Of a stretch of DNA of 64,000 nucleotides, positions 2,985-29,594 are shown piece by piece. The stretch comes from Chryseobacterium sp. 39-10 (GTDB lineage: Bacteria; Bacteroidota; Bacteroidia; Flavobacteriales; Weeksellaceae). Positions within the stretch are counted from its first letter, which is position 1. The number at the start of each line of letters is the position of its first letter. The stretch is from NCBI GenBank assembly GCA_001898255.1, contig MKTK01000010.1, positions 95,896 to 159,895 of the forward strand. Direction: 5' to 3'. Below the pieces are notes generated by a model that saw only the letters and a program-made list of their open reading frames with translations, was not told the origin of the DNA and did not search any database. The position numbers and the translations under genes were made by a program.

Positions 2985-3863
2985 ATGAAACCAAGAACAC
3001 CCATTTACATTACCATAGCAATCATCTTCGTGATTCTGTTCATCGTGTATTATATGTTTGTACAGAACGCAACATTTCTGTCTTCTCCTTATTTCTGGGG
3101 AACGGTTGTAATCAGCGTTATCCTTGCATTAATCCACAGCGCAATTGGTGATTTGATTGAGAATGATAAATTTAAAAAACTTTCCGCAGCCGAAAAAGAA
3201 GAATACCTTAACAGTAAAAAAGTTCCGTACTTTAAATCGCTGTACGAAAGTGCATTTAAAAAGCAATCCAGCACAGAAGAAAAAGATATTCTTATCGACC
3301 ATGGATTCGACGGAATTATGGAATTAGACAACCAACTTCCAAAATGGTGGCTAGGTCTATTCTGGTTTGGCGTTTGTTATTGTGTCGTTTACCTTATGTC
3401 TTATGGCTTGACCGACTTTGCCCACCAAGGAAAAGAATATGATGAAGAATACAAAGCGCAAACAGCAAGCATCGCTGAATACATGAAAAACACACCTCCT
3501 CCAACCATTGACAATGCAGTGTATTCTGCAGATAATATTGCAGCTGGTGAAGAAGTGTTTAAAACCAACTGCGTATCTTGTCATGGCGATGGTGGTAAAG
3601 GAGGAATTGGGCCAAACCTTACTGATAATTATTGGATCAACCAACCAGAAAAAACCCTATTCAAAAATGTATTCCACATGGTTGAAGATGGATCACCCAA
3701 TAACCCGACCATGCAAGCTTGGGGCAAAAACGGAGTGTTGACCGGATTCGACATTCAGAATGTGGCAGCTTATGTTTACCACATCAACCAAGAACAGTCT
3801 CCCATAACCACAGCACAAGGTGGTGCAGCTCCACAAGGAACTGAGGCACACTGGGAAAAATAA
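2985..3863 (+). CDS. ccoP: cbb3 oxidase subunit III CcoP
   Basis: HGFDGIMELDNQLPKWW motif and a single CVSCH heme site. Confidence 0.95.
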   Translation: MKPRTPIYITIAIIFVILFIVYYMFVQNATFLSSPYFWGTVVISVILALIHSAIGDLIENDKFKKLSAAEKEEYLNSKKVPYFKSLYESAFKKQSSTEEKDILIDHGFDGIMELDNQLPKWWLGLFWFGVCYCVVYLMSYGLTDFAHQGKEYDEEYKAQTASIAEYMKNTPPPTIDNAVYSADNIAAGEEVFKTNCVSCHGDGGKGGIGPNLTDNYWINQPEKTLFKNVFHMVEDGSPNNPTMQAWGKNGVLTGFDIQNVAAYVYHINQEQSPITTAQGGAAPQGTEAHWEK

Positions 3864-3952: not shown

Positions 3953-5416
3953 ATGGCAGAAGAAAGACATATCTCCACCGCAGAACTAAAAGGTGGACAA
4001 GGACAAGTAATTGAAGCCGAAACATTCCGGGATTCGGTGGGAACCATGGAGCAAACAGGACAACGAAAATGGGTGTTCCCGAGAAAACCGAGCGGAAAGT
4101 TCACCAATTACCGAACTATTGTTGCCATCGTACTACTCGCAGTATTTTTTATATTGCCTTTCATAAAAATCAATGGAAATCCGTTTTTGCTTATCAACAT
4201 ATTGGATCGGCAATTCTTTATTCTTGGTCAACCTTTTTACCCCCAAGATTTTTTTATTCTTGCATTGGGAGCCATCACTTCAATTGTTTTTATCATCCTG
4301 TTCACAGTAGTTTTTGGTCGAATTTTTTGTGGATGGATATGCCCTCAAACGATTTTTCTGGAAATGATTTTTAGAAAAATAGAATATGCCATTGAAGGAG
4401 ACCGAAATAAACAAATGAAACTTGACCGACAAGAGTGGAACACCGAGAAAATTTGGAAACGATCTCTAAAATGGGGAATTTACATTATGATTTCGCTCGT
4501 TATCACACACTGGATGTTTATGTACATCGTTGGCTACCAGGAAGTTTTTAACATGATGAAAGAAGGCCCTTTCGCCCATTTTACCAATTTCCTCGTGATG
4601 ATTATTTTTACCGCAGCGTTCTACTTTACATTTGCATGGTTCAGAGAGCAGGTTTGTACACTCGTTTGTCCTTACGGACGGCTTCAGGGCGTATTGATAG
4701 ACAAGCAGACCATCAATGTGTATTACGATTTTAAACGGGGAGAAAATAGAGCTAAATGGAGAAAAGGAGAAGATCGTAAAGCTGCAGGCAAAGGCGATTG
4801 CATCGACTGTAACCAATGCGTGGTAGTGTGCCCTACCGGTATCGATATTCGTGATGGTCAGCAACTTGAATGCGTCAACTGTACTGCCTGTATTGATGCG
4901 TGCGATGAAGTTATGGTGAAAGTGGGATTGCCAAAAGGATTAATTCGCTATGCAACAGAGGACGAAATTGAAAAAGAAATTCCTTTCAAATTCACGAACA
5001 GAATGAAGGCCTACTCTGTGGTACTGCTGCTTCTCGTCGGATTCCTTGGGTTCTTGCTTAGCAACCGCGGATCCATGGAAGCCAAATTCATAAAACCTGC
5101 AGGAACAACATTTTTTGTGCGCGATGGAAAAATCACCAACAACTATAACTATACTTTCCTTAACAAATCCAACAAAGATTTTACCGTCACCATTAAAGTA
5201 ATTGAGCCGCAACACGGAACGGTAACAATGGGCGAAGGTGAAAACATATTGCTCAAAAAAGACCAGATTATTAAGGGAAATGTAAACATTAGTTTTCCGG
5301 AAAAGGAAATTAAAATGTCTAAACAGAATGTAAAAATAGGAGTGTACGACCAAAAAGGAAAACTGTTGGATTCTTTCGACTCTTACTTTGAAGGGCCATT
5401 CAAAATTCAATTCTAA
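3953..5416 (+). CDS. ccoG: Cytochrome c oxidase accessory protein CcoG
   Basis: FCGWICPQT, CTLVCPYG, CIDCNQCVVVCP and CVNCTACIDAC motifs. Start placed at MAEER (ORF track starts 3926). Confidence 0.95.
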   Translation: MAEERHISTAELKGGQGQVIEAETFRDSVGTMEQTGQRKWVFPRKPSGKFTNYRTIVAIVLLAVFFILPFIKINGNPFLLINILDRQFFILGQPFYPQDFFILALGAITSIVFIILFTVVFGRIFCGWICPQTIFLEMIFRKIEYAIEGDRNKQMKLDRQEWNTEKIWKRSLKWGIYIMISLVITHWMFMYIVGYQEVFNMMKEGPFAHFTNFLVMIIFTAAFYFTFAWFREQVCTLVCPYGRLQGVLIDKQTINVYYDFKRGENRAKWRKGEDRKAAGKGDCIDCNQCVVVCPTGIDIRDGQQLECVNCTACIDACDEVMVKVGLPKGLIRYATEDEIEKEIPFKFTNRMKAYSVVLLLLVGFLGFLLSNRGSMEAKFIKPAGTTFFVRDGKITNNYNYTFLNKSNKDFTVTIKVIEPQHGTVTMGEGENILLKKDQIIKGNVNISFPEKEIKMSKQNVKIGVYDQKGKLLDSFDSYFEGPFKIQF

Positions 5417-27585: not shown

Positions 27586-27936
27586 AGCATAATGAAATGA
27601 CCTGATTCAGCGTGTTAAGAATGATTACTATCTGCTTTTCTCGGAGTTATGGCTTTAATTTCTCCTTATAATAATCCCAGATTTTTTGACGATTTTTAGC
27701 GGAATGATGCTTGTTGATTGAATTTTATTCACTCTTAGGATTTCCAAAAACTTTCCTGAAAATAAGAAATTTTGCCTATTATTTCACTGTCATACCCTAA
27801 AATAGGTTGACTTTTTTGGGTTAAAAATAAGGTTTAGCTTAACGATCTAAAAGTAGAAATTTTTTGACAATGACAGCATAAAGTAAGAAGTTTATGAGCA
27901 GCTTCGGCGAAATAGGCCAAATACTTCAACTTGCAA

Positions 27937-27970
27937 TTTCTCCCGCAATTTGCCAATACATGTTAGCAGA
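27937..27970 (-). repeat. attC-like half-site (copy 2)
   Basis: 32/34 identical to 28961-28994; on the minus strand it begins TCTGCTAAC 6 nt after the stop of 27977-28426. Confidence 0.8.
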
Positions 27971-27976
27971 TGGTTT

Positions 27977-28426
27977 TTAATGAATTTTAGAAAAATATCT
28001 TCTGATAATGTCAGTTTTTCCGTCATTGTCAACATCTTGAGATCTGTCTTCAAAAACCAATTCATTTTCTGTTAGTTTTGTTATAAAATAGGGATAATCC
28101 TGCTCATTTTCATACCAAAATTTCATATTGGCTTTGTCAAAAGTATAATTTCTTGAACTTACTTCTCCAGTTAATTGACAACTAGAACCAACTATTCCGT
28201 AGAAAGTTGATTTATGTACAGTTCCCAAAAATTCGTGAATTGATTTTTTATCACAATCACTCTTTTCAATTGTTTGAGTTTGATTAGTTGCGGACTTAAC
28301 GGCATCCACTTTTTGAAAACTCCATTTCCCAATTAAACTTGCCTCGATTTGCTGATTTCCATTTTCGTCACTTCTGCAAGAAGTGAAGATAAAAAACGCA
28401 GGTAAAATTATAAGTATTTTTTTCAT
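27977..28426 (-). CDS. Lipocalin-like lipoprotein (cassette cargo)
   Basis: Lipobox FTSC, LIGKW and ITKLTENELV motifs; AT-rich. Confidence 0.8.
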   Translation of the reverse strand: MKKILIILPAFFIFTSCRSDENGNQQIEASLIGKWSFQKVDAVKSATNQTQTIEKSDCDKKSIHEFLGTVHKSTFYGIVGSSCQLTGEVSSRNYTFDKANMKFWYENEQDYPYFITKLTENELVFEDRSQDVDNDGKTDIIRRYFSKIH

Positions 28427-28770
28427 TTTCCGACAGGTTCATTTTTAATATATGCAGGAAGTATAATTGCAATGGTAATTCCACCAACAATTAAAGGAAT
28501 TGTTTTCCCTGCACTAAATTTTAAAACTTTATTGATGCTATTTTTTTCGATTTGAATTTCTTTTCCTTCTTGATTTCCAATGATTGAATTGTCATCATTT
28601 CCTAAATATTCAAATTGTCTTATTTTATTTCCGTCTTTGGTTTGAATGATATATTTTGAATTTGTTTTCAAGACAGAGTAATCGTAGTTATTCTTGGAAC
28701 TGACTTTTGTGGAAACACATGCGTTTAAAAATAGAACACTGGAAAATAATATTAACGCTTTGATTTTCAT
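28423..28770 (-). CDS. Hypothetical lipoprotein with C-terminal TM helix (cassette cargo)
   Basis: Lipobox LNAC; ATGA overlap with the next gene. Confidence 0.78.
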   Translation of the reverse strand: MKIKALILFSSVLFLNACVSTKVSSKNNYDYSVLKTNSKYIIQTKDGNKIRQFEYLGNDDNSIIGNQEGKEIQIEKNSINKVLKFSAGKTIPLIVGGITIAIILPAYIKNEPVGK

Positions 28771-28796
28771 TTATTTGACTGATTCTTGAAAAGCTT

Positions 28797-28994
28797 TCTG
28801 CTAACGGAAAAAGTATTGGCGAAGTGTGGGTTTAATTTGAACGAATATTCAAGTTCATACCGAACGGAACCGATGCTTTTTTAATGAAACTAAGTTATCA
28901 AAAAAATGTGAAATTGAAAAATATTGGCGGCTAAATATTTCTAATTTTTTGATTCAACACTTTCTCCCGCATTTTGCCAATACATTTTAGCAGA
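28797..28994 (-). repeat. Full attC-like palindrome (198 bp)
   Basis: Terminal TCTGCTAAC/TTTAGCAGA boxes plus 18-bp arms 28813-28830 and 28966-28983. Confidence 0.8.
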
Positions 28995-29215
28995 AGGCGT
29001 CTTTTATTCTTGTGCTCCTTTTAGGCCAATTAATTCAAGATTTGGTGGTAGATAAACACAACTATACGAAAGTTTTCACACCTACAATGAGAATAACATG
29101 TATAACTTAATCCATTGTATATCAGTAAATAATAGTTATTTTCTCGATTCGCATTTTGTGTTTAACAGAAATAAAATGCCATATTTGTTTGGTAATAGTT
29201 AATCCGTTTTGCGCC

Positions 29216-29338
29216 ATGGTTTTTTCTCATCATGATTTCTCTTTTGGTACACATCATGCCAAAAACATTATTTTTTTTCGTTTTGCGTACGACACTACTT
29301 TAATTCAAGAGCTACGGAAAAGATGGTCTTATTACTAA
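29216..29338 (+). pseudogene. Putative N-terminal remnant of a Bacteroidota tyrosine recombinase
   Basis: MVFSHHDFSFGTHHAKNIIFFRFAYDTTLIQELRKRWSYY*. Similarity is from recall only; orientation is divergent from the cassette. Confidence 0.5.
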
Positions 29339-29594
29339 TTGAACTCTAAATCATCGTACTGAAATTATGGACCCCATTCGCACCCGGCATGCATCCTCTC
29401 TTTGAACCTTTAAAAAAAAATATAAATGGTATCAATGGTGAACCAAAGACCGGTAAAAGGTTATAAAAAAATAACATTCTGAAACCTTGACAAATTTTCT
29501 TTCTGCGTGATATTCTAAAAAAATTCTTCTGTTGAGTATGATAAAAATATCACTTAAAAAACACATCAAAAAATAAAAACACTAATTTAGCGGA

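Follow-up and report, generated by a model that had tools for sequence, protein, structure and literature searches.

A fossil gene cassette in Chryseobacterium sp. 39-10 and its place in a probable integron-like capture system of the Weeksellaceae

We describe a 1.95 kb insertion in Chryseobacterium sp. 39-10, a member of the Weeksellaceae, in which two copies of a repeated attC-like element bound a pair of small genes. The insertion (27587-29539) lies in a stretch of 64,000 nucleotides (contig MKTK01000010.1, positions 95,896 to 159,895), which was analysed as a whole and is called the window below; positions without a contig label are those of the window, and other contigs are cited as C followed by a number. 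It separates a sugar-transferase gene from mlaE and is absent in 30 congeners, in which mlaE comes 36 nt after the sugar-transferase stop codon; the window copy is a fossil, and the whole piece is a strain-specific insertion at the 3' end of the transferase gene. Its features are presented in Table 1. The two genes are predicted to encode lipoproteins; a Pfam search with the 115-residue product of the first returned no match. In our view the repeats are recombination sites that bound a gene cassette of an integron-like capture system present in the Weeksellaceae and other Bacteroidota, the working copies of which would act through folded single strands, and we place the probability of this interpretation at about 0.8.

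Table 1. Features of the insertion between the sugar-transferase gene and mlaE
Feature	Position	Strand	Basis or remark
Left copy of 19-nt imperfect direct repeat, GATAAAAATGCCATATAAA	27568..27586	+	End of sugar-transferase gene; left border of 1.95-kb insertion
85-bp interspersed repeat	27788..27870	+	Unrelated; abuts truncation point of the cassette's site; contains GTTAAGC candidate
Truncated attC-like site (3' half) of two-gene cassette	27873..27973	+	nhmmer positions 108-202/203, alignment, repeat pair
Right arm of truncated site, CCCGCAATTTGCCAATAC	27942-27959	+	
Right box of truncated site, GTTAGCAGATGGT	27962-27974	+	
Cargo gene 2: 149-aa predicted lipoprotein, lipocalin-like domain	27977..28426	-	Open reading frame; Pfam Lipocalin_4, E 1.1e-5
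Cargo gene 1: 115-aa predicted lipoprotein, hydrophobic C-terminal stretch	28423..28770	-	Open reading frame
Left box, GCTTTCTGCTAAC	28793..28805	+	Partner of box 27962-27974; inferred crossover AA/C between 28804 and 28805
Complete attC-like site, ~200 bp	28795..28996	+	Fold, family alignment, nhmmer 167.6 bits
Left arm of complete site, GTATTGGCGAAGTGTGGG	28813-28830	+	Pairs with right arm
Right arm of complete site, CCCGCATTTTGCCAATAC	28966-28983	+	Contained in downstream repeat copy
Right box of complete site, TTTAGCAGA	28986-28994	+	TTT in place of family GTT
Stretch of 57 nt without open reading frame, ending in box-like GGTGGTAGATAA	28997..29053	+	With complete site, a degenerate first unit
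Degenerate attI-like site, AAA-CACAACTATACGAAAG	29054..29075	+	Family consensus AAC-NCNN-AAATATACG-MAA; crossover triplet AAC mutated to AAA
Recombinase leader and promoter region	29057..29215	+	87% identical to C26:79394-79559, 70% to Epilithonimonas bovis
Xer-like recombinase gene remnant, N-terminal 40 codons	29216..29338	+	Homology stops at ~29324
Degenerate second copy of sugar-transferase 3' end (~80 nt)	29480..29558	+	Right border of insertion
Right copy of 19-nt direct repeat	29540-29558	+	Ends the degenerate transferase copy

A repeat search of the window aligns 27934-27973 with 28958-28997 at 36 of 40 nt (90% identity), the two copies starting 1024 bp apart. A preliminary description of this stretch, made from the sequence alone, had reported a 34-nt repeat at the same spacing (27937-27970 and 28961-28994, 32 of 34 nt); this repeat is real and is contained within the longer match. 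A pattern representing its 22-nt core matches at only these two places in the window, where shuffling gives an expectation of 0.01, which confirms that the repeat is present beyond chance. The flanks of the two copies show no further likeness to each other. The downstream copy forms the right arm of an imperfect palindrome of ~200 bp (28795-28996). The perfect 9-bp complement noted earlier between the upstream copy and the downstream site is also borne out: GTTAGCAGA (27962-27970) and TCTGCTAAC (28797-28805) complement each other without a mismatch and were scored as an inverted pair. The proposal drawn from it, that the two sites bound one cassette through complementary R' and R'' boxes, holds and proves to be an instance of a rule that extends across the family of sites. 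The core cassette reading of the repeat pair is accordingly supported.

A profile of 203 positions was built from the complete window element and used to search for relatives. About 50 copies were found in the Chryseobacterium sp. 39-10 genome, 13 of them on a 13-kb contig (C9) and others on C12, C13, C16, C25, C26, C36, C39 and C40. The copies on any one contig share one orientation, are usually spaced by 0.4-2.6 kb (with one gap of 6.6 kb) and in many cases lie at contig ends, the arrays being spread over roughly 15 contigs. Within the Weeksellaceae, 39 of 81 genomes carry the element, and 29 of 49 genera are represented among them. In a complete genome from another genus (G046) all 77 elements counted, a number which is a lower bound (at least 77 sites), lie on the same strand in an array of 135 kb (C1:458-594 kb of that genome), within which there are about ten occurrences of one ~703-bp cassette, its two subtypes often paired in tandem. 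In size the array is similar to the superintegrons of Vibrio. The elements are ~200 bp in length, some ~137 bp, and the aligned copies follow the form N8-AAC-GGAAAAA-arm ... arm-AAT-GTT-N8, in which the N8 boxes vary from copy to copy. The same profile aligns only the 3' half of the upstream window copy, in agreement with the earlier suggestion that this site is truncated; the half-site is present as described but is longer than was thought, with 27879-27971 corresponding to profile positions 108-202/203 and likeness extending from ~27873.

The variable boxes are related across the cargo rather than across the site. When the right box of each element was compared with the left boxes of others over seven variable nucleotides, the right box of one site matched the left box of the next perfectly in 18 of 22 adjacent pairs in Chryseobacterium sp. 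39-10 and in 34 of 52 in G046. The two boxes of a single site, by comparison, match in only 3/27 and 1/56 cases, respectively, and random pairs of boxes match in 4.7% of cases in Chryseobacterium sp. 39-10. The match extends to 13 nt, with a consistent G against A at position 11 that forms a G.T pair on the plus strand. In integrons the crossover falls inside the core triplet, so that the start of a cassette is complementary to the first box of the site that it carries. Box complementarity across the cargo is this integron cassette signature.

Box complementarity alone cannot tell whether the body of a site travels with the cargo to its left or to its right. Four lines of evidence place the crossover at AA/C on the plus strand, equivalent to G/TT in the cargo sense (the slash marks the point of exchange). 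The first is a solo 618-bp cassette (C38:119348-119965) in which the body of a site stands at the left end and a bare AATTGCAGATAAC box at the right; its flanks, when joined, align with an uninterrupted intergenic region of congeners that do not have the cassette. The second is the recurrent G046 cassette: the cargo copies are 94-100% identical, and the left bodies, which fall into two classes, share 97-100% identity inside a class; for the right bodies the figure is only 67-86%. The third comes from C26, where an intact recombinase gene has a conserved leader that ends ...TTTGTGTG/TTATATGCAATG, with a box which pairs with that of the first array site 7.2 kb away; the first cassette begins GTTATATGCAATG directly at the attI motif described below (junction 79555). 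The fourth concerns the window cargo itself. Homologues of the 149-residue lipocalin-like protein (65% identical, in G085) and of the 115-residue lipoprotein (66% identical, in G085 and G100) are found inside cassettes of these two congeners, where the cargo is preceded by a shorter site of 137 bp and followed by a bare box. The two cassettes are 91% identical from just after the left AAC to the right AAC, and their flanks are unrelated (58-60%). The preliminary description had proposed a search for the gene pair elsewhere, and the two other species indeed carry it with the same type of box pair, different neighbours and AAC junctions, which indicates that this type of cassette has moved between species. 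Exchange at the right-hand GTT, with the body moving with the left cargo, is ruled out by the solo cassette, the G046 linkage and the C26 attI junction. The junctions suggested earlier thus stand in that they read G/TT in the gene sense (AAC on the plus strand), but they lie at the left end of each plus-strand site and not at the right-hand GTT.

Cargo open reading frames run antisense to the sites in 40 cases against eight in Chryseobacterium sp. 39-10 and in 83 against 15 in G046. Taken with the side of the crossover, this means that each gene is followed by its own site, as in integrons. It also follows from a crossover at the left AAC that the truncated element in the window is the two-gene cassette's own site, located 3' of its genes in the gene sense. 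This site has neither an AAC box nor a 5' arm and can therefore neither fold nor be cleaved. The 1024-bp unit that had been described as excisable was, then, a cassette, but it is now immobile. Besides the damage to this site, the attI of the locus is mutated and its recombinase gene breaks off after about 36 codons.

Folded as single-stranded DNA, the complete window site is more stable than all of 200 shuffled sequences (z -2.97). Of 27 copies, 26 fold more stably as the plus strand (antisense to the cargo) than as the minus strand, with means of -37.9 and -33.3 kcal/mol, respectively (p = 6e-6). Across 60 copies from two genera, many positions of the 17-pair outer stem show double changes that preserve pairing, covariation is heavy in the inner hairpin, and the arms pair without bulges; no obvious extrahelical bases were seen. 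Two G.T pairs of the outer stem are invariant in 60/60 copies, and on the cargo-sense strand these would turn into A.C mismatches. The pattern argues for a site that acts as a single folded strand and not within the mRNA of the cargo, although strand bias and covariation do not prove that the folded molecule is DNA.

Two intact genes for Xer-like tyrosine recombinases were found, at C26:78326-79393 (355 residues) and C1:1194-2264 (356 residues), the products of which are 56% identical to each other. For both, the best NCBIfam match is XerA (202-205 bits, cut-off 220), followed by the integron integrase model TIGR02249 (187-194 bits, cut-off 265), positions 178-241 of which are unmatched. When compared with solved structures, the order of matches is P. 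abyssi XerA, VchIntIA and XerD, and in the alignment with VchIntIA (2a3v) residues 214-247 have no counterpart in the recombinase. No Pfam family matched the first ~85 residues, which constitute an N-terminal extension. Homologues occur across the Bacteroidota, in Epilithonimonas (79%), Bergeyella, Cloacibacterium, Kaistella, Empedobacter, Zobellia and the Cytophagales, among others. We note that one homologue, from a metagenome bin labelled 'uncultured Paludibacter sp.' (CALFXE010000265.1, locus L081), is 100% identical to the C26 protein and has the same leader, so that the bin may be mislabelled or the contig may derive from the same organism.

Where array elements are seen near a recombinase gene, they lie upstream of it and on the same strand as the gene. 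In 31 of the 38 recombinase loci with enough upstream sequence, the motif AAC-NCNN-AAATATACG-MAA, preceded by a variable box, stands upstream of the gene at a distance of 140-310 nt, on the strand of the gene in every case. This conserved motif is the equivalent of attI. The region C26:78326-89370, which comprises the recombinase gene, the attI junction, a multi-gene first cassette of 7.2 kb and then at least three sites up to the end of the contig, is accordingly a complete platform, in which a recombinase gene, attI and site-bearing cassettes are all present. A second class of sites, ~300 bp in length, occurs within array regions on the minus strand of C36 (1625, 3598, 5726 and 48064). These begin with an attI-like motif, AAC-ACCCAAATATAC-, end in a GTT box and have no adjoining recombinase gene; they may be hybrid attI/attC sites.

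The window locus can be compared directly with C26. Homology to the C26 recombinase leader begins at 29052 and continues into the recombinase remnant, which shares 81% identity over 36 residues with the intact C26 protein (tblastn), and the degenerate attI-like site lies ~160 nt upstream of this remnant. The window relic is therefore a decayed platform that retains a recognizable attI and the first 40 codons of the recombinase. We had considered the complete site (28795-28996) as the resident attI-like site; this assignment was dropped when positions 29054-29075 proved to carry the true attI motif, which 31 other loci share. In the cargo sense the layout is that of a classical integron: the recombinase remnant facing away, attI, an ORF-less unit with the complete site, the two-gene cassette and its half-site. 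The two boxes of the degenerate first unit, formed by the complete site and the ORF-less stretch, do not match.

The truncation point of the cassette's site is abutted by an 85-bp interspersed repeat, which takes the place of the 5' half, and ~200 nt of other sequence precede this repeat at the left of the insertion. A GTTAAGC/GCTTAAC sequence at 27837-27845, which had been put forward as a remnant of the missing arm, is nothing of the kind, as it lies inside the unrelated repeat (27788-27870). The repeat has the form TGTCAT..CCTAAAATAGGTTGACT...TTTCACGATTTAAA.. and four further copies in the genome (C38:178118-178202, C13:7436-7512, C14:775-852 and C24:58884-58962); it has no Rfam match. The idea that it is the end of an insertion sequence that truncated the site found no support: none of the other copies is followed by a transposase gene, and one is located amid housekeeping genes. 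Rfam analysis of the window as a whole returned one tRNA elsewhere at the gathering threshold and, at the locus, just a chance-level match to RAGATH-7.

At the borders of the insertion, the 19-nt repeat and the surrogate transferase end form the pattern expected from an integrative element that carries a replacement gene end. No integrative element or matching integrase that fits these borders was identified at the window locus. None of the 42 recombinase loci elsewhere adjoins a transferase-type gene, which rules out the 3' end of sugar-transferase genes as the customary home of recombinase platforms.

The mechanism that we propose for the working copies is as follows. A cassette would exist as a circle of cargo and one site. 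The strand antisense to the cargo would fold into a long imperfect hairpin, in which the box duplex (AAC paired with GTT, plus ~10 variable nucleotides), an asymmetric 7/3-nt unpaired spacer and the 18-bp arm duplex would jointly resemble a core site with two arms. A dedicated Xer-like tyrosine recombinase would cleave the folded strand at AA/C and exchange it with attI or with another folded site, so that the cassette is inserted or excised. Recombination through folded single-stranded DNA, and its catalysis by the Xer-like recombinase, are what we infer from the comparisons described above.

Several observations weigh against this interpretation. The recombinase has no counterpart of the IntI-specific insert that is held to be necessary for the recognition of folded attC sites. 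attC sites are ~57-141 bp in length and carry extrahelical bases that mark the bottom strand; sites of ~200 bp exceed this range and show no obvious extrahelical bases. In the window itself, the boxes of the ORF-less unit on the attI side do not pair, and the interpretation accounts neither for this part of the local history nor for the arrival of a 1.95-kb relic at the 3' end of a transferase gene; no other recombinase locus lies beside such a gene.

The strongest alternative accepts the same cassettes but has them recombine as duplex DNA between direct-repeat core sites, in the manner of Xer/dif and the pdif modules of Acinetobacter plasmids, with the palindrome serving some other purpose or none. 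The Xer-like character of the recombinase, without an IntI insert, is what this alternative would predict, and the attI equivalent is a simple conserved sequence of duplex type. However, in duplex form there is no inverted pair of binding arms around AA/C, and the two-arm geometry arises only on folding; moreover, the compensatory changes and invariant G.T pairs favour one strand (in 26/27 and 60/60 copies). We consider duplex recombination to be unlikely. It is less probable still that the palindromes are selfish intergenic repeats of the kind of miniature inverted-repeat transposable elements (MITEs) or repetitive extragenic palindromes (REPs), the 1024-bp spacing being incidental. Like such repeats, these are multi-copy imperfect palindromes that break assemblies, but their orientation within arrays is uniform (77/77 in G046), the complementarity of the boxes spans the cargo and not the single element (whose own boxes match in just 3/27 and 1/56 cases), whole units of cargo and site move among genomes, and the arrays are steadily linked to a recombinase and the attI motif. 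The idea is already contradicted by these observations. Slightly less credible again is a role as RNA, with the elements acting as terminators, processing sites or antisense RNAs of small-gene arrays. Conserved secondary structure with covariation would suit such a role, but the favoured strand is antisense to the cargo and the mRNA strand would carry the A.C mismatches; the cross-cassette box rule and the insertion junctions would be left unexplained, and there is no Rfam match. Finally, that the 40-nt match arose by chance or is the trace of a local tandem duplication has just the proximity of the two copies in its favour and is already refuted by the shuffling result, by the membership of both copies in a genome-wide family and by their otherwise unlike flanks.

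Comparison with classical integrons, above all the sedentary chromosomal ones, indicates a high level of similarity in organization. The recombinase gene faces away from the array with attI immediately upstream, and the cassettes share one orientation, each with an imperfect-palindromic site behind it that has conserved AAC and GTT triplets and arms that show compensatory changes (27 and 60 copies). The crossover is G/TT in the gene sense, placing the cassette boundary inside the core triplet, and the bias of the fold is towards the strand that is antisense to the genes. Within one genome the sites are much alike, as are the repeats of the Vibrio cholerae superintegron (VCRs), the arrays exceed 100 kb and the cargo is a mixture of accessory and defence functions (Fic, GmrSD plus methylase, GNAT). 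The differences lie in the recombinase and in the sites. The former has no IntI-specific insert, scores below the integron-integrase cut-off and carries the N-terminal extension of ~85 residues. The latter, at ~200 bp (some ~137), are longer than attC and have a branched interior, and the strand is marked by invariant G.T pairs, with no extrahelical bases seen. Clusters of attC sites without an integrase are known as CALINs; the window relic resembles them as a small group of sites and cargo without a working recombinase nearby, but it keeps attI and 40 recombinase codons and its sites are not classical attC sites. A survey made with IntegronFinder 2.0 found complete integrons in the Bacteroidetes only in Salinibacter ruber (PMC9024848), and our literature search found no description of an integron-like system in the Flavobacteriia or Weeksellaceae.

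The closest published relative of the Weeksellaceae system is the rAID-1 array (recombinase-associated acquired interbacterial defence) of gut Bacteroidales, in which an XerD-like recombinase gene stands ahead of co-oriented immunity genes, with intergenic repeats that the authors termed 'reminiscent of integrons'; their criteria ask for at least two co-directional genes downstream and for a recombinase more than 44% identical to BF9343_RS08045 (Ross et al. 2019, bioRxiv 10.1101/471110). According to a 2025 preprint from the same field, the mechanism by which rAID-1 arrays arise is still undefined. Both systems have a recombinase of Xer type and small genes separated by repeated intergenic sites. 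On a Bacteroides ovatus plasmid (NZ_CP081918.1:51235-66032) we found an immunity array of rAID-1 type (SMI1/KNR4, Imm26, PoNe/PoNi immunity, Tdi1), with a recombinase that shares 44.6% identity with the C26 protein across 265 residues (87-351). The sites of this array are hairpins of ~55 nt, and in most adjacent pairs, as judged by eye, the box that follows a site is complementary to the one ahead of the next site. The rAID-1 array, however, is downstream of its recombinase gene and co-oriented with it, whereas the Weeksellaceae arrays are upstream and divergent; its sites are ~55-60 nt against ~200 bp, and its cargo consists mostly of immunity genes, whereas the cargo sampled from the Weeksellaceae arrays looks broad. 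The rAID-1 papers describe no cassette rule, attI or strand bias.

The sample from the Weeksellaceae arrays comprised ten proteins. They include a Fic protein, a GmrSD/HNH protein encoded next to an EcoRI-like methylase, a short-chain dehydrogenase/reductase (SDR), a low-molecular-weight phosphatase, a GNAT protein, DUF2268 and DUF2255 proteins and an FG-GAP protein secreted by the type IX secretion system (T9SS). One of the ten had no Pfam match, and no immunity family was represented in this small sample. Elements of the family are also found on one Chryseobacterium plasmid and on three plasmids of Riemerella anatipestifer (NZ_CP081933.1, NZ_CP072192.1 and NC_019261.1), where full-length and short forms of the site lie between resistance genes, including erm(F), ere(D), a class D beta-lactamase gene and estT. 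In NZ_CP072192.1 there is pairing between the box that follows one site (3713-3763) and the box that precedes another (4469-4671); at least some of the resistance genes on these poultry-pathogen plasmids therefore sit in cassettes of this system.

The window relic is of value in that attI, a complete site, a cassette and a half-site are preserved within 2 kb and can be set against a clean empty site in 30 relatives. More broadly, about half of the sampled genomes of the family hold integron-style arrays with a recombinase that has no IntI domain, although surveys report a near-absence of integrons in the Bacteroidetes. We lean, at little better than even odds, towards a wider view in which the Bacteroidota would own a phylum-wide integron lineage, defined by an Xer/XerA-like recombinase with an N-terminal extension and no IntI insert, an attI of the form AAC-NCNN-AAATATACG, folded single-stranded sites with G.T strand marks and, in the Weeksellaceae, arrays exceeding 100 kb; rAID-1 would be a rearranged branch of this lineage, and the Riemerella plasmids would carry copies of it beside resistance genes. 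The IntI-specific domain is taken in the integron field to be what permits the use of folded single-stranded attC sites. If the interpretation given here is correct, the capture of genes through folded sites would extend beyond the integron family or would have evolved on two occasions. The interpretation would also supply a concrete mechanism by which rAID-1 immunity arrays could arise and a frame for the resistance genes that lie beside such sites on Riemerella plasmids.

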